DNA from: Gemmatimonadales bacterium
GTDB taxonomy: Bacteria > Gemmatimonadota > Gemmatimonadetes > Gemmatimonadales > GWC2-71-9
Direction: 5' to 3'
Assembly: GCA_041615815.1 (NCBI GenBank)
Contig: JBFJCP010000001.1
Span: 64,001 to 128,000, forward strand
Length of the DNA stretch: 64,000 nucleotides
Shown here: positions 40,608 to 53,866 of the stretch, piece by piece
Layout of the letters: every line of letters starts with the position of its first letter
How positions within the stretch are numbered: the first letter of the stretch is position 1
The notes under the pieces: model-generated
Told to the model about the DNA's origin: nothing
What the model saw: only the letters and a program-made list of their open reading frames with translations
The model's database searches: none
Position numbers and translations under genes: made by a program

Positions 40608-41933
40608 ATGCTCGACCGCTTCTTCCAATTGCACGCGCATCAAACCACGGTTCGCCGCGAGATCGGCGCCGGGGCCACCACCTTCGTCACGATGTCGTAC
40701 ATCATTTTCGTGCAACCGGTGGTCCTGGGGGCCGCGGGCATGGATCCGGGCGCGGTGATGACGGCGACCTGTCTGTCCAGTGCTCTGGCCACGCTCCTGA
40801 TGGGGCTCCTCGCCAATTATCCCATTGCTCTAGCGCCAGGAATGGGGCACAACTTCTTCTTCACCTACACGGTCGTGATCCTGTTGGGATACACCTGGCA
40901 GCAAGCGCTCGGTGCCATCTTCGTTTCCGGGGTATTGTTCATCGTTCTGGCCTTCATCGGGTTTCGCGAGCGGTTATTGAATGCCGTCCCGGCGGCGTTG
41001 CGCAACGGCATTGCAGCAGGCATTGGCCTCTTGATTGCGCTGGTGGGACTCCAGTGGGGCGGTATCGTCGTCGATAGCCCCGGAACACTCGTGCAGCTGG
41101 GCTCCTTGGGGTCACTCCCGGTGTTGCTCACCGTGCTGGGACTCGCGGTTACGTCGATCCTGCTCGCCTGGCGGGTGCGGGCCGCTATTCTCCTCGGGAT
41201 CGTGACCACCCTGGTGGTCGGGCTGGCGCTGGGAGTGACGGAGTTTCACGGAGTCGTGGGACGTCCTCCAGCGCTGCGCGCCACATTCCTCCAGCTGGAC
41301 GTGCTTGGGGCGCTCCAGACCGGGATGCTCTCCGTCATCTTCGTGTTCTTCTTCCTCGATCTGTTCGACACGGTCGGGACCCTCATTGGCGTCACGCAGG
41401 AGGCGGGGTTGGTGCGGGAGGACGGCACGCTTCCTCGGGCCCGCGGCGCACTCTTGGCCGACGCCATCGGCACCGTGAGCGGAACGCTCCTGGGCACGTC
41501 GACGATCACGAGCTACGTGGAGAGTGCCGCCGGTGTGACCGCCGGAGGCCGTACCGGCCTAGCCAGCGTCGTTACGGCACTCCTCTTCGTGAGTGCGCTG
41601 TTTTGTGCACCGTTGGTGGCGATGATCGGTCGGGGCGTACCGATGGGCGAGGGGCGTGTGCTCTATCCGATGGTCGCACCGGCGTTGATCCTCGTGGGGA
41701 GCTACATGATGAAAAGCGTTGTGCGGATCGAGTGGTCGGATCCGAGCGAAGCGATCCCGGCATTCCTCACGATTCTCGTCATGCCCCTGACCTTCAGCAT
41801 TACCGAGGGCATCGCGTTCGGATTCATTGCCTATGTCGTGCTCAAAGGGGCACGTGGTCGGCTTCGTGAGGTACCCCTGCTCATACAAGTGTTCGCCGGG
41901 TTGTTCGTCCTCCGTTACCTGTTGCTCTCGTGA
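40608..41933 (+). CDS. NCS2/AzgA-family purine permease
   Basis: TTFVTMSYI, LAPGMG, FDTVGTL, YVESAAG, GGRTGL; multi-TM. Confidence 0.92.
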   Translation: MLDRFFQLHAHQTTVRREIGAGATTFVTMSYIIFVQPVVLGAAGMDPGAVMTATCLSSALATLLMGLLANYPIALAPGMGHNFFFTYTVVILLGYTWQQALGAIFVSGVLFIVLAFIGFRERLLNAVPAALRNGIAAGIGLLIALVGLQWGGIVVDSPGTLVQLGSLGSLPVLLTVLGLAVTSILLAWRVRAAILLGIVTTLVVGLALGVTEFHGVVGRPPALRATFLQLDVLGALQTGMLSVIFVFFFLDLFDTVGTLIGVTQEAGLVREDGTLPRARGALLADAIGTVSGTLLGTSTITSYVESAAGVTAGGRTGLASVVTALLFVSALFCAPLVAMIGRGVPMGEGRVLYPMVAPALILVGSYMMKSVVRIEWSDPSEAIPAFLTILVMPLTFSITEGIAFGFIAYVVLKGARGRLREVPLLIQVFAGLFVLRYLLLS

Positions 41934-41956
41934 AGGTGCAGGGGGTGTCGATCGGC

Positions 41957-41985
41957 TTGCCAGCTTACCGCATGCCAAGCATCAT
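41957..41985 (+). promoter_or_regulatory. sigma70-type leaderless promoter for acyltransferase
   Basis: TTGCCA-N17-CATCAT ending 6 nt before GTG 41992. Confidence 0.45.
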
Positions 41986-41991
41986 TGTGGC

Positions 41992-42783
41992 GTGAGTTCC
42001 CCCGCGAAACGCGAGGTCGCGACCTCGGCTCGAAGCAGACGGAGGGGCATTACCGAGCGGCTGAGGAGACACGCACCGCCGCGCCGTGGGCCTCTCTTCC
42101 GGCTTTTTTGGCCGATCACGGCCTATCTGCTCACCAACATCACGGTCACGTTCTTCTGGGTCGTATTCCGGGTGTTCAATCGGACCGTGGTCACGGGCTT
42201 GGAACACATCGACGACGAGCCCAACACGATGTTACTGTCGAATCATCAGTCCATGATCGACAGCTTCTTGGTGGGCCTCGTCGCCTATTTCCCACGGGCC
42301 ATGTGGAAACCGCATCTCTTGCCGTGGAATCCGGCCGCCGAAGAGAATTTTTACAGGACGCCCGTGTTACGATGGTTTGCAGACAACTGGAAGTGCATTC
42401 CCATCAAGGAGGGCCGGCGAGACCTGCACGCTCTCCACCGAATGCTGCAGGTATTGCCTGCGGGGGTCATGACCCTCTTCCCCGAGGGCACACGCACGCG
42501 AGATGGCTCGGTGGGCCGCGGCCGACCGGGGGCAGGGCTCGTGATCCTCGGAAGCCGCCCCAAAGTCATTCCCGTCGCCATTGACGGGATGCAGGACGTC
42601 TTACCGATTGGGGCGGTGCTGCCCCGGTTGTTCAAACGGATCTACGTGGCGTACGGCGAGCCGCTCGATTACGCCGACCTTCTCAACAAGCCCCGCTCAC
42701 GCGAAACTGCCCAGGAGGTCGTGGACCGCGCGATGGACGCGGTTCGCCGCAAGCTCGAGGAAATCAGGCGTGATCGGCGGTAG
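41992..42783 (+). CDS. Lysophospholipid acyltransferase (PlsC family)
   Basis: SNHQSMID (HxxxxD), FPEGTRT, VIPVAI. Confidence 0.9.
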   Translation: MSSPAKREVATSARSRRRGITERLRRHAPPRRGPLFRLFWPITAYLLTNITVTFFWVVFRVFNRTVVTGLEHIDDEPNTMLLSNHQSMIDSFLVGLVAYFPRAMWKPHLLPWNPAAEENFYRTPVLRWFADNWKCIPIKEGRRDLHALHRMLQVLPAGVMTLFPEGTRTRDGSVGRGRPGAGLVILGSRPKVIPVAIDGMQDVLPIGAVLPRLFKRIYVAYGEPLDYADLLNKPRSRETAQEVVDRAMDAVRRKLEEIRRDRR

Positions 42784-44356
42784 CTGCCGCCGCAACTTGC
42801 GTAGCCGGTTGCGGCTTGATGCCGTCTCCATTCACCTTCTTGAGATAGGCGGTCGGATCGTGCAGCAGCGATCCTTCGGGCAGGTACTCCCAGAGCGCTC
42901 CAAGGTCGCTCTTCATGCGCTCGATGTAGAATGACGGGATCTGCGTCGTCTCTCCTTCGAAAAAGCGGCGCGTCGGGCCGTCGGTTGCGAGGAGCTGTTT
43001 GATCTTCTTGTAGTACTTGATGCGTCCGAATCCCTCGGAAGACACTGCCCGAAGAAGGTTGATCCAGCGCGAAAATCCCCGCCTCGTCCCGCGCGCTCGC
43101 CGCACGATGTTCTTCCAGGAAAACGAGTATTGGGTCAGATCGATGACGTGATCGTAAAACTCCCCCCACTCGTAGTTCCTGGGCTCGACATTCATCGCCT
43201 GATTGTTGTTCAAGAAGTGGAACGGGAACGGGCGGACTCGCCCGGCGCGTTGAAACTCGAGGTTGAGGGGTGCGGCCTCTCCAAACGCGGACAAGAGTGA
43301 ATAGCCCGGGAATGCGCCGGGTGTCTTGTCGATGAATTGCTTGGTGAGCTCGAACGGCTCCGGTCCCTCATCCACGTCGAGACCCAGGACGAAATTGGTT
43401 TGGACGTAAGGGATGTATTCCAATATCATGTTTACGTGGTCGGAGACCTGTTGCACCTTCTCGAGACCACGCTTCTTTCCCGTCTTGGACTTGCCACCCA
43501 AATCGTACCATGACTCGATCCCCGGGAGCATCACCTTGAAGCCCGCGGCGCTCAGGCGCTGCAAGTTCGCTTCCTTGAGGAGGGAGAGACTGCTCTCCGC
43601 GGCGAACGTCAGCGTCCCGGGACGGATGGCATCTTCGATCGCGCTCATGTAGTCGTCGAAGCGAACGCCGAAGTTCGGATCGTGCCAGCCGATCCAGGCG
43701 TTCGGCATACGGTCGACGAGGAAACGCAGGTCCTCACGAATCTGGTCGTAGTCCAACGGCTGATAATCGACCACCGAATCGATGCAGAAGCTGCACGTGT
43801 AGGGACACCCGAGACTGCCGATCATCGGGATGCCTTTGATCGGTGTCGGTGATTTGGCGATGGTGTGTTCGATGAAGCGCCAACGCTCTCGCACACCTGG
43901 CAATGTCTGGGGTTGCCGCGGCGCACTGAGGTGCAGCCCCATGGGGCGATGGGGTGCGCAATCGCGCAAGATCTCGTCGATGATCGCCTTATCGGTGAAC
44001 CCGACGACGTAATCGAAGTACTTCCGGGCATCCTCGGGGTAGCACCGCGCGTGCGGCCCGCCGAGAACCGTGACCGCCCCCCGCTGCCGAAACAGATTGC
44101 TCAGGGCATACGACAGCTGAGCCGCCTGGCTGAAGGCGCCGATGAAGAGCAGATCCATGTCCGCGGGAAACGCTTCGAGGAGATCCTCCGACCCGGTGAA
44201 GCACTCGAAAGTGACGTGATGGCCCGCCTCCTCGCACCAGACGCCCACGGCTTGTGGCATGATGCTGGCCAAATTCGGGTGCATCAGGCGGCCGTACAGC
44301 GCTTTGGTGGGTCCCTTCGTGACGAGGTCGAGGATACCGATCCGTAGTCGTCGCAC
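42764..44356 (-). CDS. Cobalamin-binding radical SAM protein
   Basis: N-terminal B12-binding Rossmann domain (TVLGGPHA), GCPYTCSFC, GIES, NFVLGLD. Confidence 0.88.
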   Translation of the reverse strand: MRRLRIGILDLVTKGPTKALYGRLMHPNLASIMPQAVGVWCEEAGHHVTFECFTGSEDLLEAFPADMDLLFIGAFSQAAQLSYALSNLFRQRGAVTVLGGPHARCYPEDARKYFDYVVGFTDKAIIDEILRDCAPHRPMGLHLSAPRQPQTLPGVRERWRFIEHTIAKSPTPIKGIPMIGSLGCPYTCSFCIDSVVDYQPLDYDQIREDLRFLVDRMPNAWIGWHDPNFGVRFDDYMSAIEDAIRPGTLTFAAESSLSLLKEANLQRLSAAGFKVMLPGIESWYDLGGKSKTGKKRGLEKVQQVSDHVNMILEYIPYVQTNFVLGLDVDEGPEPFELTKQFIDKTPGAFPGYSLLSAFGEAAPLNLEFQRAGRVRPFPFHFLNNNQAMNVEPRNYEWGEFYDHVIDLTQYSFSWKNIVRRARGTRRGFSRWINLLRAVSSEGFGRIKYYKKIKQLLATDGPTRRFFEGETTQIPSFYIERMKSDLGALWEYLPEGSLLHDPTAYLKKVNGDGIKPQPATQVAAAATADHA

Positions 44357-44457
44357 TGAAACCCCTATGAGGTCAAAGGATGGGCGAAAGGTTCACCACC
44401 GCAGCGGCGAAAGCAACCCCGGCTTGACGATGCTCCCACGGGACCGCACGATCACGC

Positions 44458-45162
44458 ATGGCCGAGCGGCTCGTACGCTACCGATGGAACGTCGCCGTGG
44501 TCGAGGTGGCGGCACCCGGAGCACCGTTCCGTGCCCTGGAACGTATCATCCGCCAAGGCATCGGCCCGGCCACGAGCGATCCGGTCTTTCAGGAGCATGC
44601 GGTGGCTTTCGCCGTCTCGAAGACCGCCGAGCCAACGGCCGAAGACCGGGTCCGGGGCTGGGTTGATCTGACCGCTGTCGCGCCGTCCGACTCGCCGATC
44701 CGCGGGGCGGTGCAGCGCCATCTGGGCGATCTCGGCGCCATCGAGGAGCCGCCATCGGATGCTGACCCGCTCCTGCTGCCCCAGGCCGCGGAGTATCGCC
44801 GCGGCCTCACTGACATGGTGGCCATCGCCTTGGACCTGCATGGCGCGGATCCGACCACGCTGCGGGCGCATCAAGGTGAGCTGCTCCAAGTGGCGTGCAG
44901 CGCTACCGATCCCCGGTTCCAGCTCCACCCGTATCTCTCGGAGCACAGCAAGGTCTACCGTGCCCGCACTGGCGTGCCGCCGGACGGGAGTAGCTGGTCC
45001 TGGGAGCACGAGGAGTGTTGGGCCCGATTCTACACTCCCGGACCGATGGCGACGCTCGCGGCCCCCATCTACGCCCTGCTGAACGTGGTGCTCGGCATCG
45101 TCCCGCGGCGCTGGGACCGCCCGGACGCGCTGGCGGCACGCATCGATATCCCCCTGCCGTGA
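44458..45162 (+). CDS. Hypothetical protein
   Basis: 234-aa ORF fills the gap between the two rSAM genes; TTGACG(44424)-N17-CACGAT promoter-like element ends 5 nt before the ATG. Confidence 0.6.
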   Translation: MAERLVRYRWNVAVVEVAAPGAPFRALERIIRQGIGPATSDPVFQEHAVAFAVSKTAEPTAEDRVRGWVDLTAVAPSDSPIRGAVQRHLGDLGAIEEPPSDADPLLLPQAAEYRRGLTDMVAIALDLHGADPTTLRAHQGELLQVACSATDPRFQLHPYLSEHSKVYRARTGVPPDGSSWSWEHEECWARFYTPGPMATLAAPIYALLNVVLGIVPRRWDRPDALAARIDIPLP

Positions 45163-45226
45163 GGCCCGAGCGCCGACCGGACGGGCCGTGGACCCCGAAG
45201 GTCAGAGGCTCAAAGGGCGAGCGCGC

Positions 45227-46702
45227 TCAGGCCACCTTGGATACGAGGCGACGTTGGTCGGACCGCCCGTTCCCACCCTCCCGCCGGGGCGCTCGCACGC
45301 GGACCGGTGGCTTGAGGTACGCCTTCGGCTGCCGCATTTCAGAGACGGCGCTGTACACCCGTCGCATACACCAGAGCTTGCCACCCACCGCCATGCGCGC
45401 GGCCTTGAAGAGCATGGGGACCGTCAGCCGCGTCGTCTTGACCGTGAGATCGTACAGCTGCGCCAAGCGCTCGTAGAACTGCTCGAGCGGCAGCCGCGTT
45501 GGCAGGACGGCATGAATCACGTCGTAGTACCCATAGTCATGCGTCGTGAGCTCGTGCTGCCGCTCCTTGTAGAGCTCGGTTCCCGGGAGCGGGGTGAGAA
45601 CGGTAAACGCGGGATTGGGCAGCTCGTAGCGTCGGATGTATTCCTCGAGCCGATCGAACCCCTGCTCGTCCCAATCCGGATCTGTGATAAACGAGGTCAG
45701 GGGCGTGATCCCAGCGTCCTTGAGGATCTGGATCGCTTCGACATTGGCGTCCGCACCACCCTTGGTCCGTTTCCGCACGGACTTGAGGCCATCGTCGTCG
45801 ATTTTCTCGACGCCGAGAAAGACCGTATGGAGCCCCGCTCGCTTCCAGAGAGGGAACAGATCACGATACTTGATGACCAGGTCGCAGCGAGTCTCACACG
45901 TGTATTTCTTCTCCATCCCCGACGCGATGATGCGCTCGGCCATCTCTTTGTAGGACTCGTAGTGCAGGAATGCGATGTCGTCGGTGAAGAACACCTCGTA
46001 TTCGTCGATGGCTTCGAGCTCGGCCACGATCGCTTCCGGTGAACGGCGGCGCGCGCGACGCTGGTAAAAGACCCAGACGCTGCAGAAGTTGCAGTCGAAC
46101 GGGCACCCCCGGGACGTTTCGACGCTGGCCGACGGTGAGGCCTGACCGTGATGGTACCACTTGCGATATTGCGCGGTCAGGGACCGATCGGGAGCGGGGA
46201 CGGTGTCGAACCCCTGCAGGGCGCTCTGATGCCGAAAGCCGTCCTCGCGGTTCTTCCAGGTCATGACACCGGGCACCGCGTCGATGGGGGTCCGATGCCG
46301 CATGGCTTCGATCAGATCGGCGGCAGGACGCTCGCCCTCCCCAATCACTACGCCATCCACGGGGGAGTTCGGGTGAAAGAAGTCGCTTGGCACCAGGGAG
46401 GCGTGGTGCCCGCCAACGATGATGGGAAGGTCGGGCCGGCGTTCCTTGACAAAATGCGCGACCTCGAGACTCGGGTAGACGTCGGTGGTGAACGAGCAGC
46501 TTATGCCCACGACGTCGGGCGGATCGTCGAGGGTGGAATCGAGATTTTCCCAAGTGTCGATACGGAGATCGATCAGTTCAGCCTCGACTCCCCGTTGCCG
46601 AACGGCCGCCCCCACACATTCCAAGCCAAGTGGCTCCACGCGGAGTATGCGGGTGAGTCCGAAGCGTGTTCCCTGGGGCGGCTGGACGAGAAGCATTTTC
46701 AT
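45227..46702 (-). CDS. Cobalamin-binding radical SAM protein (HpnR-like lipid methylase family)
   Basis: EPLGLE, VGGHHAS, GEGE, SRGCPFDCNFC, FLGVE, DPDWD, TPLPGT, HAVLPTRLPL; GGAG before ATG 46702. Confidence 0.88.
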   Translation of the reverse strand: MKMLLVQPPQGTRFGLTRILRVEPLGLECVGAAVRQRGVEAELIDLRIDTWENLDSTLDDPPDVVGISCSFTTDVYPSLEVAHFVKERRPDLPIIVGGHHASLVPSDFFHPNSPVDGVVIGEGERPAADLIEAMRHRTPIDAVPGVMTWKNREDGFRHQSALQGFDTVPAPDRSLTAQYRKWYHHGQASPSASVETSRGCPFDCNFCSVWVFYQRRARRRSPEAIVAELEAIDEYEVFFTDDIAFLHYESYKEMAERIIASGMEKKYTCETRCDLVIKYRDLFPLWKRAGLHTVFLGVEKIDDDGLKSVRKRTKGGADANVEAIQILKDAGITPLTSFITDPDWDEQGFDRLEEYIRRYELPNPAFTVLTPLPGTELYKERQHELTTHDYGYYDVIHAVLPTRLPLEQFYERLAQLYDLTVKTTRLTVPMLFKAARMAVGGKLWCMRRVYSAVSEMRQPKAYLKPPVRVRAPRREGGNGRSDQRRLVSKVA

Positions 46703-46932
46703 GGCGGGGCACTCCAGGGCAAAGAGTGTCACAGGCCGGGTGCCGGCGATGGGTCCAAAGGGGTGATGACACCATCGCCAGTCGCTCAGGCGCTGCGTCA
46801 ATGACAGAGGCCGGTCGGACGTGAGAATGTCACGCACCGACCGGCCCGGTCTCTAGGTTACGTTCTCACCGATCGAGAGAACGTAGGACTATTGCTCCAC
46901 TTCCCGAGTTCGGCGGACGGCGGCGTGCCAGC

Positions 46933-48792
46933 TCAATGACATCCACACGCGCCGTCGCCGTTGCCGGCCCCAACGCCGGCAGCCACGACTGGAAGCGACC
47001 GGCTCGTCTTGCCGGGAAGGTCCATGGGGCGGTTCCCCGCGTAGATCTTGTGTCGGCTGCGGGTCTTGAACCAGTCCTTCGTAGTGGCCACCATGTGCAT
47101 GTTCTCCACCACCTGGCGCCAGCCCACGCCAGTGTTGTAGGCGCAGAAGGAGATCTCACCCTCCTGGGTGGCGTAGGGGATCACACACATCTCGGTGCGG
47201 CGAAAATCGTACGTCCACAGATCCTGGAACCACATGCCGCCGATCCACATGAGCTTCCACTCGGGTGGCGGCGGCTTCTTCCCACCGGTAAAGGCGCCAC
47301 CCATCTTGCGATTGAAGAGTCTCGCGAACTCTTTGAGGTCGAATCCTGGAGGTGCCTTGGACTGATCGAAGTTCCGTAGTACCGCCATGCCCACCTGCGC
47401 AACCGTGAGCTTCTTGCCCCGCGCCGTATCGCAGATGACCGACACATCCTTCATGAACTGCCAGACGTTGAAGAACTGCGTGAGGGGGGCCCACTCCTTG
47501 GTCCGCTCGTTCACGGTGAGCAACACCGAAGAACCGCAGTTGGGGTGACACGAGCAATTGAGACCCCCGAAGTCGACGTCCGAGCCCCGGATGTGGTCCG
47601 CCAGTGCCGTGAAGGCACCCATGGCCCCGAGCGGATACCAGTCGCGGTACGGATCGATCTTCCCGTCGTAGTAACGGTGCAGCTCGTGCGCCAGATGCGA
47701 AATGGTGTAGCGCTGCGCGTGACGGTCTTCGTCGCTGATATCCTCGTCGCGGCCCGTGAACGACACGGGCTGGAAGGACACGCCACCCATCTTGTCCGAG
47801 TTCTCGATGACGAAATCGAGAATCGGTCCCACCTGGGTGTCGTTGATCGTATTGACGACGGTGGTGACCGGCGTGATATCGATGCCAGCGGCGGCCATGT
47901 GCTCGACGGCCATCCGCTTGGCATCGAACAGGTTCGTGATTTGCCGGTGTTGGTTGGACTCGTTGGTGACGCCATCGAACTGGAAGTACGCCATATCGAG
48001 GCCGGCTTCCTTGGCCTGGAAAGCGTATTCCGGCTCCAGCGCGAATCGCAGCCCGTTAGTGGCCGCCTGGACGGTGTAGTAACCCACTTTTTTTGCGTAG
48101 GCACAGGCTTCCAGGAAGTGCGGTGACATGGTGGGTTCGCCGCCGGAAAACTGCACGGACATCTGTCGGCGCGGCTTGAACGAAATAGACGTATCCAGGA
48201 TTTCCTTGATGTCCTCCATCGAGAGCTCGTGGACGTAGCCCACCTGATTGGCGTCCATGAAGCACGGGTTGCACATCATGTTGCATCGGTTGGTGAGGTC
48301 GATCGTGAGCACGGCACCCCGACCGTACCGAATCGATGATGTCCCGTGTCGGTGGATCAGCGCATCCTCCGCGGTCCGAAAGTCGCGGCCGGGATAGCGC
48401 TCCTCGATGAGCTCGCTGAACTTGGCGTCGATGCTGAGTACGTCGACAAACTCCCCGTGCACGGGGCAGGTCTTCCGCATCAGAATCTGACCGTCTTCCT
48501 CGACGATGGTCGCCCGGATCTCGCCCGGGTGCCCATGGACCAACTCGGCGAGATCCCGATCGCCCCTGATAATGGCTTCTCGCGTCTCCTTGACGCATCG
48601 GGGGCAGAGCGAATCGGTCTCCCGCGGCCATCCGAGCGGCGGACGGCTGCGCTCGTAACTCTTGAGCAACGGCCCGGGAGCCCACTGTGGATGGATCGAC
48701 TCGTTCTCGGGAACTCGGGTGTTGACGGACTGGAACGCCCGCCACCCGAGATCGGCTGCGTGGCGGATCGCGGCCGCCAGTACTTCGCTCAT
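46933..48792 (-). CDS. tes: Tetraether lipid synthase (Tes/GDGT-MAS)-like radical SAM protein
   Basis: TDSLCPRC...KTCPVHGEF, DLTNRCNMMCNPCF, VQFSGGEPT, ATNG, YFQFDG, FQPVSFTGR, SCHPNCG, MWFQD, CVIPYAT...SFCAYN; GGAGG before ATG 48792. Confidence 0.82.
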   Translation of the reverse strand: MSEVLAAAIRHAADLGWRAFQSVNTRVPENESIHPQWAPGPLLKSYERSRPPLGWPRETDSLCPRCVKETREAIIRGDRDLAELVHGHPGEIRATIVEEDGQILMRKTCPVHGEFVDVLSIDAKFSELIEERYPGRDFRTAEDALIHRHGTSSIRYGRGAVLTIDLTNRCNMMCNPCFMDANQVGYVHELSMEDIKEILDTSISFKPRRQMSVQFSGGEPTMSPHFLEACAYAKKVGYYTVQAATNGLRFALEPEYAFQAKEAGLDMAYFQFDGVTNESNQHRQITNLFDAKRMAVEHMAAAGIDITPVTTVVNTINDTQVGPILDFVIENSDKMGGVSFQPVSFTGRDEDISDEDRHAQRYTISHLAHELHRYYDGKIDPYRDWYPLGAMGAFTALADHIRGSDVDFGGLNCSCHPNCGSSVLLTVNERTKEWAPLTQFFNVWQFMKDVSVICDTARGKKLTVAQVGMAVLRNFDQSKAPPGFDLKEFARLFNRKMGGAFTGGKKPPPPEWKLMWIGGMWFQDLWTYDFRRTEMCVIPYATQEGEISFCAYNTGVGWRQVVENMHMVATTKDWFKTRSRHKIYAGNRPMDLPGKTSRSLPVVAAGVGAGNGDGACGCH

Positions 48793-48925
48793 GGCACCTC
48801 CAGATGGGAGCAAAGTGTCTTACGACGCCTGACCCCACCCCTCCGGCGCTTGCTGCGGCTGTACCAGGGCGCCGACCGGAGAAAATCGGCACGCAGGGCG
48901 GGTGGTTTTCATAAGGGGCGCACGG

Positions 48926-48955
48926 TGAGAATGGTTCCCACGGTACGCCCTGCAA
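48926..48955 (-). promoter_or_regulatory. Candidate tes promoter overlapped by a Fur-like 7-1-7 palindrome
   Basis: TTGCAG-N16-CATTCT on minus strand; TGAGAAT-G-GTTCCCA at 48926-48940. Confidence 0.35.
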
Positions 48956-48989
48956 ACTTGCCCGAGTATGACGCTTAGCACCCCTCGCG

Positions 48990-50060
48990 TCAAGGCCCGG
49001 GTTGGCTCTGCGGAACGGCCGCGGGAAGGGGTATTCCCGCCTCGAAAAGACGCCGTTCGACCTCGGGCGCTAACCGCGCGCTCGGCTCGACCCACCGTAG
49101 CCCTTCGCCGAGCAGCGCACGCATCCGTTGCTGTGTTGTGCGGCCCGTTACGTCGTCGAATTTCGACGCGAGCCCTTGGAGCCATGGCGCCGACGCCACG
49201 AGCTTCGTGGCGCCCACTTCCGATGGTTGGGTGTGCGGCCGGCCCGAGGGGAGCGTGAGCACGCTTTGGCCGTCGCCGACATAGGTATACCAGGCCATCC
49301 GCACCGTGGGTGTCACACCCACCGCTTCGAACAACACGACGTCCTCCGCCTGCGGAGCACACTGCAACACCCGGTCTCGAACGAAATCGATTGCGTCGCC
49401 ATGGCTGAATTCCACGCGGTCCAACGTCCCGTCCGCACGAGCGGCGTAATGGATCCCTGCCACGTCGTCGGGCTCGGCCTTCCGGGCCTCACCGCGCCAA
49501 TTCTGCGCCCGCTCCGGGGTATCGAGGACCTGCGATCGATCCCACAGAAACCCGTGGCCCACGATACCGTTGGTTCCCTCGTCGCTTCGGTCGGGTAGGA
49601 TGATGGTGTCCGGAATGCCCGCCGCCTGCCGAAGGGCGAGTAGTCGCGTCGCACTGACCGCATCGGTGGCCACGGCAACCCGGGCACCGCTGTCGCGCAC
49701 GGCCTCGCCCAACTGGTCGTCGGAGAGATCGTGCGACAGCCCCACCGGAACGCCCCGGAGTCCCTGTACGGCAAAATCGACGTAGAGCCACATCGGCCGT
49801 AACGGTCCGAATACAGCCACGCGGTCCTCCGCACCGACCTGGAGATTCCCACTGAGAAAGAGGGCAACCCGAATCACCTGGCGATCGAATCGCCAATCGG
49901 GATCGCTGACCCATTGCTCGTCCGCCCAATGCCGAACGACGGCGGGACGTGCGTGCTCGCGCATGGCGAGATAGAACAGGGCATTGACCGTTTCCGGAAT
50001 GGTGTGGAGCGGTCGAACCTCACGGTCCCGCGCCTCACCGGTCGTGATATACAGCAGCAT
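48990..50060 (-). CDS. Degenerate, truncated long-chain acyl-CoA synthetase-like (AMP-binding N-domain) protein
   Basis: EDRVAVFG...WLYVDFAVQ...VPVGL...DSGARV and PDDVAGIHY follow the FadD pattern; P-loop not conserved; ends before the GYG motif. Confidence 0.7.
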   Translation of the reverse strand: MLLYITTGEARDREVRPLHTIPETVNALFYLAMREHARPAVVRHWADEQWVSDPDWRFDRQVIRVALFLSGNLQVGAEDRVAVFGPLRPMWLYVDFAVQGLRGVPVGLSHDLSDDQLGEAVRDSGARVAVATDAVSATRLLALRQAAGIPDTIILPDRSDEGTNGIVGHGFLWDRSQVLDTPERAQNWRGEARKAEPDDVAGIHYAARADGTLDRVEFSHGDAIDFVRDRVLQCAPQAEDVVLFEAVGVTPTVRMAWYTYVGDGQSVLTLPSGRPHTQPSEVGATKLVASAPWLQGLASKFDDVTGRTTQQRMRALLGEGLRWVEPSARLAPEVERRLFEAGIPLPAAVPQSQPGP

Positions 50061-50066
50061 CTGGAC

Positions 50067-50597
50067 TCAACCTCTCGGAATGGAATGCGGCTTCAAGGCC
50101 TGCCACAATGATTCGATCGTCGGATCTGTGATCTGCCACCGCTCCATGGCATGAATGAGCGTCCGAACATACTCGACGCCGGTCCCCACGGTGCCGTGGG
50201 CCGCGCGGAAGGCGTCCCCCAGGGCGCCGTTCTCGACACTCCAGGGCGGAGCCGCCTGGACCGCTGGCTTCGTGACCCAGACGAGCGCCGTGGCACGAGT
50301 TCCGTCACGCAGGTCGATCCGCACCTTCTTACGCGCAAACTCTGCCTGACCTTCCCGTCGCTCGATCTTGCGCACCACGTCTTTCTCATCGCTCTTCGGG
50401 ATCTCGAACGCGACGCCCTCACACTCTCCTCCGCTCGATAACCCCAGAATGGGCGAGGGGTGGGTCGGGGTTCCCCACCGTTTCGTGGACGAGTGGTTGA
50501 ACGACCGGTGATAGCCGGTGAGGCGGGCTGGTGTCCCTCGGTAGAACCTCATGGCGTTGTCGCCCATGAGACTGCCGTAAGCGAAGATCCACGTCAC
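50067..50597 (-). CDS. ChaC-family gamma-glutamylcyclotransferase
   Basis: WIFAYGSLM, GYHRSF, RWGTP...LGL, CEGVAF, RRE, GTGVEYV. Confidence 0.88.
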   Translation of the reverse strand: MTWIFAYGSLMGDNAMRFYRGTPARLTGYHRSFNHSSTKRWGTPTHPSPILGLSSGGECEGVAFEIPKSDEKDVVRKIERREGQAEFARKKVRIDLRDGTRATALVWVTKPAVQAAPPWSVENGALGDAFRAAHGTVGTGVEYVRTLIHAMERWQITDPTIESLWQALKPHSIPRG

Positions 50598-50741
50598 GCC
50601 CAAATCCTTCCCGCTCCAGACAGTTGCGAAGCTCGAAACCCGTTGGGGTGCTTGCGGATTGCGTCGAGCGGCTTAGTCTACTACCCGAAGGCCGATTTTC
50701 AAGGGTCCCCTGCGCCTGCACTTACCCACACCACGCAGACC

Positions 50742-51038
50742 ATGATGCATCGTGCCAATGTCCTGGACGTCGTCCGAGCCGTGACGCAGGTGGCGACCAA
50801 CCACCCTCAGGTGTCGGTGTGGTGGTATGTGCCGCGGCTCCTGGACAACCCCAACATCGAGCTCCTGGTGAAGGTTGAGGATGAGCACCCCACCGACCTC
50901 GATGCGATCGCGCGCGAGGTCGACGCCTTGCTCGATGGCGCCAACGTCACCGTGAAGCGTCATGCGGACGGGGACGGGGAACGCCGGCTGTTCCGCGTGC
51001 TCAGTCACAACCAAGCCGCCGTCGACAGCGCCTCCTAG
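50742..51038 (+). CDS. Small hypothetical protein
   Basis: 98-aa ORF with GC-rich third positions; faint minimal-nucleotidyltransferase-like pattern. Confidence 0.6.
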   Translation: MMHRANVLDVVRAVTQVATNHPQVSVWWYVPRLLDNPNIELLVKVEDEHPTDLDAIAREVDALLDGANVTVKRHADGDGERRLFRVLSHNQAAVDSAS

Positions 51039-51096
51039 CCGCTCCTCTCTCGAGACCGACCCAGCCACCGCCGGCTGCGAGACCGCCCGCGGGTCA

Positions 51097-51241
51097 TGTC
51101 CTCTTTTGAGCACAAGATTTCCGGCAGAATGCGACCTGGCGTAGACAACCTCGGGCCTGGCGTGCAACGACGTAATTCCTTGATAGATATGAAATTAGGC
51201 CGGAGCGCCTCGCGGGCGGAACTTCTGGCACAGAATTTCCA
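51097..51241 (+). promoter_or_regulatory. Candidate sigma54 promoter with IHF site and upstream activator sequence
   Basis: TGT-N12-ACA (51097-51114); IHF consensus TATCAA-GGAA-TTA on minus strand (51173-51185); TGGCAC-N5-TTCCA (51226-51241), one mismatch at -12. Confidence 0.5.
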
Positions 51242-51251
51242 TTTAGGGGAT

Positions 51252-51367
51252 GCAAAGAAAAACTGCGGCGTGCTGAACGTCTTGTCGCCAGGCAAGAAAT
51301 CTCGTCGGGAGGGGACGAGCGGGACCACACCAAAGCCCGGTTCAGCACGCCGCAGCGCTTTTTGTTT
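51252..51367 (+). ncRNA. Candidate novel structured small RNA (four-way junction)
   Basis: Perfect 16-bp inverted repeat 51263-51278/51340-51355 enclosing three hairpins, followed by a T-tract; begins where a sigma54 start site is expected. Confidence 0.5.
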
Positions 51368-51523
51368 CGCTACGGTCTTCACAATATGTCACATGGCGCG
51401 GGGAACCGCAATCACGCCCGTACCGTCCGCAGACCCCGTATCACTCGTTGCTTCCCAGCACATAGCCTGCCCTCTAACTTTCACAAGACACCGCACGAAG
51501 CACGCTTTCTAGGAGGGGACGTA

Positions 51524-52858
51524 GTGAGTCACTCCAGGCTCGTTTTGCTCGCTTCTTTACTGGTCGCCGCCACCGGGACGCTTCCAGCACAGGACGCACC
51601 AGTGCGTCGAATCCCGGTTACGGGCACCATCGAATTGGGGATCGCGCCGTTCGTTGCCCGCGGGCTGTCGGAAGCACAGAAAGAGGGTGCCCGCGCCGTG
51701 GTGCTCGAGATCGAGACCCCGGGCGGTCGTGTGGATGCGGCACAGCACATCGTCAAAGCGATCATCCAGACCGAGATTCCGGTCTATGCCTTCGTGAACG
51801 CCCACGCCTGGAGTGCTGGGGCACTCATCGCGCTCGCCGCGGACTCCATCTACATGGGTCCCGGGTCATCTATCGGGGCGGCAACACCCGTGGGGGGAAC
51901 CGGAGAGAAGCTCTCCGAGAAGATCGTCAGCGCCATGCGCGGGGAGTTCCGCTCGCTCGCCGAGCGTCGGGGGCTGGACCCGCGGATCGCCGAGGCCATG
52001 GTCGATGAGGAGATTGCCGTCGAGGGCGTGGTGGAGGCGGGGAAACTGCTCACGCTCACTGCGGCGGAAGCAGTGGAAACCGGAGTGGCCGCAGCCGAAG
52101 TGGAGAATCTGGACGATCTGCTCCGGCAGGTGGGGCTGGGCGAGGTCGGCGTGGCCACGGTGAGCATCAACTGGGCGGAACAGCTCGTCCGGTTCCTGTC
52201 ACACCCGCTGGTGGCGCCCCTGCTCCTGTCCATTGGCACGCTGGGGCTCATCATCGAGATCAAGACGCCTTCCTTTGGGCTGGCGGGGCTCACCGGCATC
52301 GTGGCCTTGGGTGCCTTTTTCGGAAGCCATTTGATCGTCGGGCTTGCCGGCTGGGAAGAGGTCATATTGCTGGTCGCCGGCTTGATCGCCCTGGCGATCG
52401 AAGTGTTCGTGGTGCCGGGCTTCGGGATCGCGGGGATGATTGCCATCCTCTGCATCGGGTCGGCTACGTTCTTGGCGTTGATCGGCGCACTGCCTACCTG
52501 GGGCGATATCGCGAGAGCGAGTGGCATTCTCGTGACGTCGTTCATGATCGTGGCGGCCGCGGTGTATGCCATCGTGCGCCATTTGCCGACGAGCGAGCGG
52601 TGGAGGGGTATCTTCTTGCGGGCGGCGACCACGAAAGAAACCGGGTACCTCTCCGCGCCGGCTCGTGCCGAGTTGGTGGGCCTGGAGGGATTGGCGGTCA
52701 CGGACCTCCGCCCGTCCGGCACCATGCGGATTGGCAACGAGCGGCACGACGTCGTCTCCGATACGGGGTTCATCCCCAAAGGCGCGCGGGTACGGATCAT
52801 CCGCTCGGAAACCTACCGGCTGGTCGTCGAGGAAGTGGCCGACACCGCCAGCGTTTAA
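51524..52858 (+). CDS. nfeD: NfeD-family membrane protein (ClpP-like domain, TM region, OB fold)
   Basis: IETPGG, AWSAGALIALA, IGAATP, TDLRPSG; AGGAGG Shine-Dalgarno. Confidence 0.9.
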   Translation: MSHSRLVLLASLLVAATGTLPAQDAPVRRIPVTGTIELGIAPFVARGLSEAQKEGARAVVLEIETPGGRVDAAQHIVKAIIQTEIPVYAFVNAHAWSAGALIALAADSIYMGPGSSIGAATPVGGTGEKLSEKIVSAMRGEFRSLAERRGLDPRIAEAMVDEEIAVEGVVEAGKLLTLTAAEAVETGVAAAEVENLDDLLRQVGLGEVGVATVSINWAEQLVRFLSHPLVAPLLLSIGTLGLIIEIKTPSFGLAGLTGIVALGAFFGSHLIVGLAGWEEVILLVAGLIALAIEVFVVPGFGIAGMIAILCIGSATFLALIGALPTWGDIARASGILVTSFMIVAAAVYAIVRHLPTSERWRGIFLRAATTKETGYLSAPARAELVGLEGLAVTDLRPSGTMRIGNERHDVVSDTGFIPKGARVRIIRSETYRLVVEEVADTASV

Positions 52859-52873
52859 TGGACGAGGACGACT

Positions 52874-53866
52874 ATGAGTGAACTGTTTGCGATAGCACCG
52901 TGGCTGCTACCGGTGGCGCTGGTGGTCATCGTGCTGTTCTTGGGGTGGTTCATCAGCTTCATCCCGATCCGGTTGTGGATCGAGGCACTGGCCGCCGGCG
53001 TCCGCGTCACCTTCCGAACGTTGGTCGGCATGCGGCTGAGAAAGGTCAATCCGGCCGCCGTCGTGCGCCCCATGATCAACGCGACCAAAGCAGGGCTCTC
53101 TCTCGGCATCGACATGCTGGAAGCGCACTACTTGGCTGGGGGAAACGTGGATCGCGTCGTGAAAGCGCTGATCTCTGCGGATAAAGCGGGGATCGATCTC
53201 CCCTTCAAGCAGGCGACGGCCATTGACCTGGCGGGACGGGACGTCCTCGAGGCCGTACAGGTCTCGGTCAATCCGAAGGTGATCCAAACGCCCAAAGTGG
53301 CCGCGATGGCGAAGGACGGCATCCAGCTCATCGCGCTGGCCCGCGTCACCGTCCGGGCGAACATCAACCGCCTGGTCGGTGGGGCGGGGGAAGAGACCAT
53401 TCTCGCGCGGGTCGGCGAAGGCATCGTGTCGACGATTGGATCGTCGGCCTCGCACAAAGCGGTGCTCGAAAACCCGGACAACATCTCCAAAACCGTCCTC
53501 GCCAAGGGACTCGACAGCGGGACGGCCTTCGAGATCCTCTCTATCGATATCGCCGATGTCGACGTGGGCAAGAACATTGGGGCCGAGCTGCAGACCGACC
53601 AGGCCGAAGCCGACAAGCGGATCGCGCAGGCGAAGGCGGAGGAACGGCGGGCTATGGCCGTGGCGTCAGAGCAGGAGATGAAGGCCAAGACCCAGGAGAT
53701 GCGGGCCAAGTTGGTGGAGTCCGAAGCCCAGGTCCCGCTGGCGATCGCTGACGCGTTCAAGGGCGGCCAGCTCGGCATCATGGATTACGCACGGTGGCGG
53801 AACATCGAGGGAGATACGGCCATGCGGCGCAGCATCGCCGGTGAGAAGGGCGAGGAAAACAGCTAA
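52874..53866 (+). CDS. floA: Flotillin-like protein FloA (YqfA)
   Basis: [68 protein letters not shown]. Confidence 0.93.

Follow-up and report, generated by a model that had tools for sequence, protein, structure and literature searches.

A Tes-like and an HpnR-like radical SAM gene kept together in Gemmatimonadota: a candidate route to methylated membrane-spanning lipids

Widely used palaeothermometers for soils and lakes rest on branched tetraether and iso-diabolic-acid lipids. The subject of this article is a gene cluster built around a Tes-like radical S-adenosylmethionine (SAM) gene, which is a candidate route to methylated membrane-spanning lipids outside Acidobacteria. It lies in a Gemmatimonadales bacterium (GenBank assembly GCA_041615815.1; 4.19 Mb, 95.7% complete), in a stretch of 64,000 nucleotides referred to below as the window (contig JBFJCP010000001.1, positions 64,001 to 128,000; G000:C1:64001-128000). 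In our judgement, the chances are about even that the module would make ester-linked, extra-methylated membrane-spanning lipids of the iso-diabolic-acid type, by coupling of lipid tails followed by cobalamin-dependent methylation.

The closest described enzyme is archaeal Tes, or GDGT-MAS (GDGT: glycerol dialkyl glycerol tetraether), known from M. jannaschii (pdb 7TOL and 7TOM). According to section 2.1 of PMC13459092, it has four metal sites: a rubredoxin-like Fe site (three Cys and one His), [4Fe-4S]N, [4Fe-4S]RS and [4Fe-4S]C. The ligands of [4Fe-4S]N are three Cys and one His; [4Fe-4S]C, bound by three Cys and a Met, holds the substrate radical (PMC13459092). In Thermotoga and Thermoanaerobacter, the radical SAM enzyme Mss has the demonstrated activity of joining fatty acyl tails into diacids of the diabolic type, which is the reaction proposed here; its authors call it only remotely related to Tes, and it is likened to the window gene by reaction alone (PMC13159169). 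The second step also has a described counterpart. Archaeal B12 radical SAM enzymes methylate GDGT tails, and in the case of Gmm, Cgm and Pgm the logic is the same, coupling of the tails and then cobalamin radical SAM methylation of the spanning lipid; relatives of these enzymes include a desaturase (bioRxiv 10.1101/2025.10.20.683597). The likeness to Gmm, Cgm and Pgm is one of description, whereas the nearest model of the window gene is bacterial HpnR.

The candidacy of bacterial Tes homologues has already been published. Zeng et al. (2022) proposed them for the synthesis of branched GDGTs (brGDGTs) and described one of 32% identity in Edaphobacter aggregans (PMC8941075); Solibacter usitatus, a brGDGT maker, has two (Halamka et al., PMC10087280). 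In the literature consulted, up to 2026 (PMC11868695, PMC13274423), no enzyme is named for tail coupling in Acidobacteria, nor a methylase of any kind, and nothing was found in print on Gemmatimonadota and brGDGT biosynthesis. What is new here is the strict linkage to an HpnR-like gene, the fusion and model evidence for a partner protein derived from the ANL (AMP-binding) family, a small conserved open reading frame (ORF), and the distribution figures.

Genes were read from an ORF listing together with Pfam and NCBIfam scans. The phylum sample comprises 200 other Gemmatimonadota genomes (201 with the own genome, G000). As wider relatives of the Tes-like gene, the best 80 of 595, all bacterial, were used as loci. 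The Tes-like gene was placed by its NCBIfam scores and with an outgroup, clade A, which is described below.

The Tes-like enzyme and its predicted partner

The initial annotation had called the central gene Tes-like, and this is half right. The protein is a full-length homologue of GDGT-MAS (7TOL; E 4.9e-64 over residues 99-581, C-terminal domain included), and Tes is its best NCBIfam model. With 311.3 bits against a cut-off of 450 (NF045702), however, it falls outside the Tes equivalog, and one set of cluster ligands is lost. The second-best NCBIfam model is TrsS (209 bits). Pfam finds the radical SAM domain (PF04055) and a zinc ribbon (PF23545, 50.6 bits).

The metal sites can be followed one by one. 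The radical SAM motif CX3CX2C lies at C177/C181/C184 and is invariant in 13 sequences. At sequence level, a rubredoxin-type site of the form CPxC...CxxH is present (CPRC, residues 70-73, with C116 and H119) and conserved in both clades. C426, C543 and C557 match cysteine positions of 7TOL in the alignment and likewise never vary within either clade; they are the putative ligands of [4Fe-4S]C. The remaining site, [4Fe-4S]N, reads CPxDCGLCxxH in GDGT-MAS and clade A, just ahead of the radical SAM motif; in the window protein and all eight clade-B rows, a six-residue gap without any cysteine takes its place. The window protein thus shares with archaeal Tes the full-length homology, the rubredoxin-type N-terminal zinc ribbon, the CX3CX2C core and the C-terminal cysteines. 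It differs in being approximately 100-140 residues longer, in the deletion of the CX3CX2CX2H of [4Fe-4S]N, in its score (311 vs 450 bits), in its expected substrate (a bacterial acyl lipid rather than archaeol), and in having a dedicated partner, as predicted below.

Nine further proteins scored with NF045702 fall, with the window protein, into two clades. Clade B is long (about 590-630 aa, 298-347 bits) and includes the window protein and those of Granulicella aggregans, a Solibacter-labelled metagenome-assembled genome (MAG), Latescibacterota and Polyangium fumosum. Clade A is short (about 480 aa, 553-583 bits) and includes proteins of other Gemmatimonadota families and a second copy in an Acidobacteriaceae MAG (L091). 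In a tree of 94 sequences (FastTree, LG model, clade A as outgroup), the clades are separated by a long branch of 2.08 substitutions per site, with a support of 0.908. A group with support 0.994 unites the window protein with seven more Gemmatimonadota sequences, two Acidobacteriota-labelled MAGs and a Myxococcales-labelled MAG; its sister is Latescibacterota (support 1.0). One further Gemmatimonadota sequence (G105) sits apart with Acidiferrales-type sequences (support 0.934), which points to a separate acquisition. Identity to the homologues of G. aggregans, an Edaphobacter MAG and the Solibacter-labelled MAG, all of the same clade, is 51-53%. Outside the window, contig G000:C2 of the same genome encodes a 476-aa radical SAM protein (L121:4720-6150, minus strand) whose best, if weak, NCBIfam match is also Tes (57 bits).

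Upstream of the Tes-like gene, the initial annotation saw a degenerate acyl-CoA ligase, and this description holds. PF00501 matches with 58 bits over profile positions 27-270 of 384, and the C-terminal domain is absent. Taking the canonical ATP-binding loop (P-loop) motif of ANL enzymes as our assumed reference, the aligned position reads YAARADGTLDRV; it is unconserved or gapped in 10/10 aligned orthologues (21-54% identical). With neither P-loop nor C-terminal domain, the protein is, by its sequence, catalytically dead, and it is called dead-ANL in the following. Two motifs, PDWRxDR and LDTPERA, are invariant in the ten orthologues. A profile search over 1.84 billion representatives returned 162 proteins at E<=1e-30, nearly all of them stand-alone and 210-435 aa long.

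Gene fusion and structural modelling both link this protein to the Tes-like enzyme. In an Acidobacteriota-labelled MAG (L043:7023-9824), the two are fused in frame, in a 933-aa ORF without stops that carries AMP-binding, zinc-ribbon and radical SAM domains. Fusions of 895-922 aa are seen in another four proteins (P0392-P0395) from two other, metagenomic, sources, which makes five in all. A model of the complex of the two window proteins scores 0.82 (runs 0.83, 0.82 and 0.00), and the best of three controls scores 0.01; the mark applied is reached by 116 of 157 solved complexes and by 2 of 215 mismatched pairs, counts that are approximate here, since own alignments were used. Contacts agree between runs to at least 44%, and the pLDDT (model confidence) of the partner is at least 80. 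The predicted interface on dead-ANL, residues 54-60 and 177-189, coincides with the invariant motifs. Dead-ANL is thus predicted to bind the Tes-like enzyme as a subunit.

The HpnR-like gene and the spread of the Tes-like clade

Downstream of the Tes-like gene lies the putative methylase gene. Its product carries PF02310 (70.5 bits) followed by PF04055 (67.8 bits), with CPFDCNFC as the CX3CX2C motif; by domain order and motif it is a class B (cobalamin) radical SAM protein. The start is placed at 46702 rather than 46837, because a database copy (P0001) has 491 aa. The best NCBIfam model by far is HpnR, the hopanoid C-3 methylase (TIGR04367; 355.1 bits, cut-off 650), followed by BchE (158 bits). 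HpnR likewise combines a cobalamin-binding with a radical SAM domain. In contrast to genuine HpnR, the window gene scores below the cut-off, stands in a genome without hopene cyclase, and has a distribution that follows the Tes-like gene and not shc. No match to the squalene-hopene cyclase model TIGR01507 was found in the own genome (95.7% complete). Among all 201 phylum genomes, shc occurs in eight (six over the family cut-off), of which only one, G086, is among the eight genomes with an HpnR-like gene. Since the genome has no shc, and since shc and the HpnR-like set overlap only in G086, hopanoids are not the likely substrate.

The link to the Tes-like gene is strict. Orthologues of at least 53% identity occur in 7 of the 200 other phylum genomes, and all seven are among the nine that have a clade-B Tes-like gene. 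The two genes are adjacent in six of the seven; in the seventh (G169) both lie on short, separate contigs. The remaining phylum genomes have no HpnR-like gene, except for three with a relative of 37-38% identity. Genome G060 has, besides the adjacent copy (73% identity), a second HpnR-like copy away from the module (G060:C27:26549-27979; 55% identity), which could mean two methylases of different positions or specificities.

The dead-ANL gene is part of the same association: every one of the eight Gemmatimonadota loci with enough flanking sequence (the window, L027-L032 and L037) has the Tes-like, HpnR-like and AMP-binding-like genes side by side. Four arrangements are found, with the HpnR-like gene downstream on the same strand, convergent, upstream of a ChaC-like gene, or convergent across a 1.2-kb gap. 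Thus, selection, and not mere inherited gene order, appears to hold the three genes together in Gemmatimonadota.

Beyond the phylum, the picture changes. Among the 80 wider Tes-like loci, an HpnR-like orthologue occurs only in L037, a Gemmatimonadales MAG. The AMP-like gene is found by tblastn in 3/80 (L037, L038 and L043), with a fourth weak match in L042 from blastp of ORFs. Clustering of ORFs over the 80 loci was uninformative; the largest cluster reached 16/80 (ATP-binding cassette transporter, TPR, peptidases, TonB receptors), and shadow ORFs in high-GC DNA make the method crude. No HpnR-like orthologue was found in 400 Acidobacteriota genomes, where the best matches, in five genomes, reach 40-42% identity (top three candidates scored in each genome). 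Genomes of Granulicella, Edaphobacter, Bryobacterales, Polyangium and Latescibacterota gave none either. The HpnR-like gene is an addition that is specific to Gemmatimonadota.

The Tes-like gene itself is spread unevenly. Within the phylum sample, clade B occurs in 9/200 other genomes (53-81% identity), and the clade-A type alone (34-38% identity) in 18/200, concentrated in three families (18 of 19 genomes). In these families (f10-f12; for example L017, L021 and L024), the short paralogue passes the Tes cut-off, and none of its cluster motifs is lost. Gemmatimonadota therefore hold both Tes types, in different lineages.

In Acidobacteriota, clade B is far more common. It is present in 138/151 genomes of the family of G. 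aggregans (Acidobacteriaceae), nearly all at 74-92% identity (136/149 without two genomes flagged as unpublished), and in 67/71 genomes of the Blastocatellia-labelled class, with full-length matches of 308-334 bits. The corresponding figures are 28/71 for the Vicinamibacterales-labelled and 17/71 for the Thermoanaerobaculia-labelled class (16/70 without a flagged genome). At the thresholds of the class runs, the Tes model matched only the three archaeal GDGT producers among 14 control genomes. Iso-diabolic acid has been reported for acidobacterial subdivisions 1, 3, 4 and 6 (PMC13274423; Table S21 of PMC13159169), and clade B is near-universal in the acidobacterial groups reported to make it; the match is correlational, relatives are not independent of each other, and class labels are those of the record titles. 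In Thermoanaerobaculum, the sole Thermoanaerobaculia strain listed, iso-diabolic acid is absent and no membrane-spanning lipids are recorded (Table S21, PMC13159169). The acidobacterial Tes homologues of Zeng et al. and Halamka et al. belong to the same clade as the window gene, and function is predicted in both. In contrast to them, the Gemmatimonadota gene is patchy (9/200) and belongs to a subclade shared with Latescibacterota and a small number of further MAGs; the acidobacterial loci, in turn, have no counterpart of the operon of ChaC-like, dead-ANL and HpnR-like genes found in Gemmatimonadota.

Layout of the locus

The initial annotation listed six genes within 8 kb, two of them B12 radical SAM genes downstream of the Tes-like gene on the same strand; all are present, with the order and strand described (Table 1). 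It also guessed a Gemmatimonadota host, which agrees with the Gemmatimonadales MAG L037: synteny extends over 17.8 kb, across the whole locus, and the two Tes-like genes share 93% identity. This shows the cluster to be native to the Gemmatimonadales lineage. The neighbourhood had been expected to be co-conserved across relatives. This is the case within the phylum, for the HpnR-like and the degenerate AMP-binding gene; it is not the case outside the phylum, nor for the second B12 gene, and PlsC and the 234-aa ORF are part of the neighbourhood in just three cases, the window, L037 and G060. The cluster also does not end at 50060, as had been thought, since the module runs on through the ChaC-like gene and the small ORF beyond it.

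Table 1. Coordinates of the module and of the genes next to it, as positions in the window
Feature	Position	Strand	Remarks
Small conserved ORF, ~98 aa, no Cys	50742..51038	+	divergent from ChaC-like gene; model weakly MNT-like
ChaC-like gene (gamma-glutamylcyclotransferase fold)	50067..50603	-	PF04752; first gene of minus-strand operon
Degenerate ANL (AMP-binding) N-domain protein, 356 aa	48990..50060	-	PF00501; predicted partner subunit
Tes-like radical SAM protein, 626 aa	46933..48813	-	clade B; HMPTM zinc ribbon; likely start ATG at 48792
GC-rich hairpin in 230-nt Tes-like/HpnR-like spacer	46808..46847	-	fold and conservation
HpnR-like cobalamin-binding radical SAM protein, 491 aa	45227..46702	-	probable C-methylase; TIGR04367, PF02310, PF04055
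234-aa ORF, model resembles LanB C-terminal domain	44458..45162	+	no family; lineage-specific accessory
Second B12-like radical SAM gene	42764..44356	-	PF04055; outside conserved module
PlsC-family acyltransferase	41992..42783	+	PF01553; start uncertain, 41827 to about 42016

The ChaC-like gene (PF04752, 77.9 bits; cut-off 21) is separated from the next gene by 6 nt. It occurs in 4/200 other phylum genomes (G060, G119, G086 and G135), always beside the Tes-like gene, and also in L037. Its YGSL motif is kept; the region of the catalytic glutamate is not invariant among six orthologues. The small ORF is conserved beside the module in six loci (the window, L027, L028, L029, L037 and L038; 32-60% identity) and matches no Pfam family. 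Its AlphaFold2 model (pLDDT 82.5) weakly resembles a minimal nucleotidyltransferase (MNT) fold; the best Foldseek matches are MNT antitoxins (8xeo_B: E 9.7e-3, query TM-score 0.63, probability 1.00), with none at E<=1e-3.

PlsC and the 234-aa ORF are later, lineage-specific additions to the module. The acyltransferase (PF01553, 62.4 bits; cut-off 23) is closest among NCBIfam models to the acyltransferase domain of Aas-type acyl-ACP-phospholipid O-acyltransferases; it contains NHQSMID and FPEGTR, which we take to be the HX4D and FPEGTR-type motifs of PlsC. The 234-aa ORF has no Pfam or NCBIfam match and no usable match in the protein atlas; it was found only in G060, in L037, and as one paralogue in the own genome, on contig C13 with uninformative neighbours. 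Its AlphaFold2 model (pLDDT 88.9) aligns with NisB 735-983 (VIA-align Z 9.3; rmsd 4.6, 168 residues aligned), TbtD (8.6) and MibB (8.4) over 164-171 residues and, also full-length, with MadB (7.2), PbtD (7.0) and TsrL (6.6); Foldseek gives none at E<=1e-3. The resemblance to the C-terminal, glutamate-elimination domain of LanB is a lead, not an assignment.

The second B12 gene, which the initial annotation had counted as a member, is not co-conserved with the rest. PF04055 matches with 33.9 bits, and PF02310 stays below its cut-off (20 bits). Its family has 6104 database proteins at E<=1e-10, of which the 120 listed matches are 67-100% identical, and is present in 55/200 other phylum genomes (54/199 without a flagged genome; 59-72% identity), most of them without a Tes-like gene. 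It has no shared neighbours across eight loci, and in G060 plsC sits directly beside the 234-aa ORF, with no copy of it between them. Being widespread, without constant neighbours and missing at this point in G060, the gene is an insertion rather than a part of the module. No PDB relative was found by sequence and no named relative; the gene represents an uncharacterised family in its own right. Among its listed database matches, one is Rhodothermales-labelled, and identities of 67-85% occur.

A very stable hairpin lies in the spacer between the Tes-like and HpnR-like genes. The fold of 46760-46870 on the minus strand has -53.1 kcal/mol (z -3.9; 0/200 shuffles as stable). Its stem, GGCCGGTCGG/CCGACCGGCC, is retained in L037 and for the most part in L027; both arms carry substitutions. 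The hairpin matches no Rfam family. It could be an intercistronic element for processing, stability or attenuation. An Rfam scan of 41000-52000 gave just two sub-threshold, chance-level matches, and terminator-like sites are no more frequent than in shuffled sequence. Promoter-like sites at 50702-50675 and 48993-48965 on the minus strand, with 9/12 matches each, were not used as evidence. Nine sequencing runs are listed as containing this stretch, none of them of RNA.

On one side, the cluster is flanked by genes for a RecQ-like helicase and a permease; on the other, past the ChaC-like gene, follow genes for NfeD, FloA and an acyl-CoA dehydrogenase (Pfam). Just past the module, NfeD and FloA (flotillin-like) form a membrane-microdomain gene pair (51362-53866, plus strand) that is syntenic in L037.

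Proposed pathway and alternatives

The minus-strand operon of ChaC-like, dead-ANL, Tes-like and HpnR-like genes, with the divergent small ORF, would form a module for the modification of lipid tails. By analogy with the GDGT-MAS mechanism, the Tes-like enzyme, in complex with dead-ANL as gene fusion and model suggest, would cleave SAM at its CX3CX2C cluster and take a hydrogen from the terminal carbon of an acyl chain, presumably an iso-branched one. The radical would be parked on the C-terminal [4Fe-4S] cluster. After a second SAM cleavage, two tails would be joined, giving a membrane-spanning diacid of the iso-diabolic-acid type. The HpnR-like enzyme would then add one or more methyl groups to unactivated carbons of this spanning lipid. 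The product would remain ester-linked, for want of an ester-to-ether enzyme with the models searched.

Several points weigh against this pathway. Since the protein is below the Tes cut-off and has no [4Fe-4S]N site, its chemistry may differ, and TrsS as the second-best model indicates that the scaffold serves other functions. B12 radical SAM enzymes also cyclise, desaturate or dehydrate. To our knowledge, ChaC-like, MNT-like and LanB-elimination-like accessory proteins have no known role in lipid metabolism. With no orthologue found in the 400 Acidobacteriota genomes searched, the HpnR-like protein cannot be the methylase (C5/C6) of known brGDGT producers. Outside Gemmatimonadota the neighbours of the Tes-like gene are not conserved, and it stands alone in 77/80 loci. 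Clade B also occurs in Polyangia, Latescibacterota and others, and in the 17/71 Thermoanaerobaculia-labelled genomes; no literature report of membrane-spanning lipids was found for Polyangia, Latescibacterota or the Thermoanaerobaculia-labelled groups. According to PMC11868695, lipid coupling has yet to be demonstrated for any bacterial Tes homologue, and the activity is still called unconfirmed.

The most direct objection is that of Sahonero-Canavesi et al., for whom only 3 of 14 acidobacteria that produce iso-diabolic acid had a Tes homologue, and who argued for a different pathway (PMC13159169). Their criteria were E<=1e-50 and at least 30% identity to an archaeal query, and their table gives no Tes homologue for G. 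aggregans (Table S21, PMC13159169). A clade-B gene is present in a G. aggregans genome, and the discrepancy is probably one of threshold. The near-universal presence of clade B in iso-diabolic-acid groups weakens the published argument from the rarity of Tes homologues.

The best-surviving alternative, unlikely though it is, leaves radical chemistry on a hydrophobic substrate in place and changes the product: intramolecular macrocyclisation, the joining or cross-linking of a different class of lipid, or a reaction other than tail coupling would take the place of a spanning phospholipid, and the B12 enzyme may cyclise or desaturate. The low Tes score, the lost [4Fe-4S]N ligands and the long branch between the clades (2.08, support 0.908) are all compatible with it. 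GDGT-MAS itself also makes macrocyclic archaeol (PMC13459092, section 2.1), a desaturase stands among the relatives of the archaeal B12 methylases (bioRxiv 10.1101/2025.10.20.683597), and the clade reaches into phyla for which no report of spanning lipids was found in the literature. What favours coupling over such a product is that the clade is found almost throughout the acidobacterial groups making iso-diabolic acid, that the C-terminal cluster cysteines, which are implicated in coupling, are kept, and that the B12 enzyme's best model by far is a methylase (355 vs 158 bits).

There is a slim chance that the cluster matures a peptide or a small-molecule natural product, as its combination of radical SAM enzyme, B12 C-methylase, LanB-elimination-like and ChaC-like proteins and adenylation-like scaffold might suggest. 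ChaC-like and LanB-type enzymes both handle glutamyl adducts. The model of the 234-aa ORF aligns full-length with NisB, MibB and MadB domains, TbtD, PbtD and TsrL (Z 9.3 to 6.6), and models of B12 radical SAM methylases of ribosomally synthesised and post-translationally modified peptides match the HpnR-like protein, if weakly (82-105 bits). Against this, no conserved small ORF is seen in the only spacer inspected, which separates the Tes-like from the HpnR-like gene, and the LanB-like ORF accompanies only 3/8 module loci. The Tes-like gene, moreover, has no conserved neighbours in 77/80 loci, is a core gene of Acidobacteriaceae, and is homologous to GDGT-MAS over its full length, C-terminal domain included.

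Slimmer still is the prospect that the locus makes true ether-linked brGDGTs, with an ether enzyme located elsewhere or of an unfamiliar type. S. usitatus makes brGDGTs and has two Tes homologues (PMC10087280), and in a genome that is 95.7% complete a gene could have been missed. With PlsA/Ger-type and ElbD-like domain models, no ether genes were found in the genome (Agps was not searched for): PF09989 (DUF2229), the domain of PlsA/Ger, has no match, and NAD_binding_4 occurs only in ORFs of at most 444 aa, so that there is no ElbD-like multidomain protein. The only matches to HGD-D and BcrAD were rejected as PlsA/Ger candidates; they form a cluster of their own, of four-subunit benzoyl-CoA-reductase type and accompanied by hydratases and a short-chain dehydrogenase/reductase (SDR). 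As the models searched revealed no enzyme for turning ester into ether bonds, ester linkage of the product is probable. The initial annotation had raised an ester as a possibility from the want of an ether gene in the window, and with no PlsA/Ger-type or large ElbD-like reductase gene found genome-wide, an ester remains the better guess. As a side observation, the row on contig G000:C2 outside the window (82000-100000; L121) comprises genes for TetR, two enoyl-CoA hydratases, an SDR, two HGD-D proteins, two BcrAD/BadFG ATPases and a zinc dehydrogenase, and looks like a class I benzoyl-CoA-reductase-type cluster for aromatic degradation.

That the HpnR-like gene is a genuine hopanoid C-3 methylase merely placed beside the Tes-like gene is highly improbable: HpnR is its best NCBIfam model, and some database relatives are so named by their sources, but 355 against 650 bits, a genome without squalene-hopene cyclase, an overlap with the eight shc genomes of 201 only in G086, and a distribution that follows the Tes-like gene all speak against it.

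With coupling followed by methylation as the preferred pathway, the locus offers an expression-ready set of candidate genes for coupling enzyme, predicted partner and methylase, kept together in four arrangements. A wider proposal is tentative, and we consider it doubtful as a whole: some Gemmatimonadota would be unrecognised producers of ester-linked, methylated spanning lipids, the Tes-like enzyme would work only together with dead-ANL, clade B would be the iso-diabolic acid synthase, and the HpnR-like gene would be the first gene known for methyl-branching. If this is true, it would be the first such gene for a bacterial spanning lipid, and methyl-branching is the basis of the brGDGT methylation thermometers. 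Gemmatimonadota would then be a possible second phylum as a source of methylated spanning lipids, which bears on the interpretation of these proxies.

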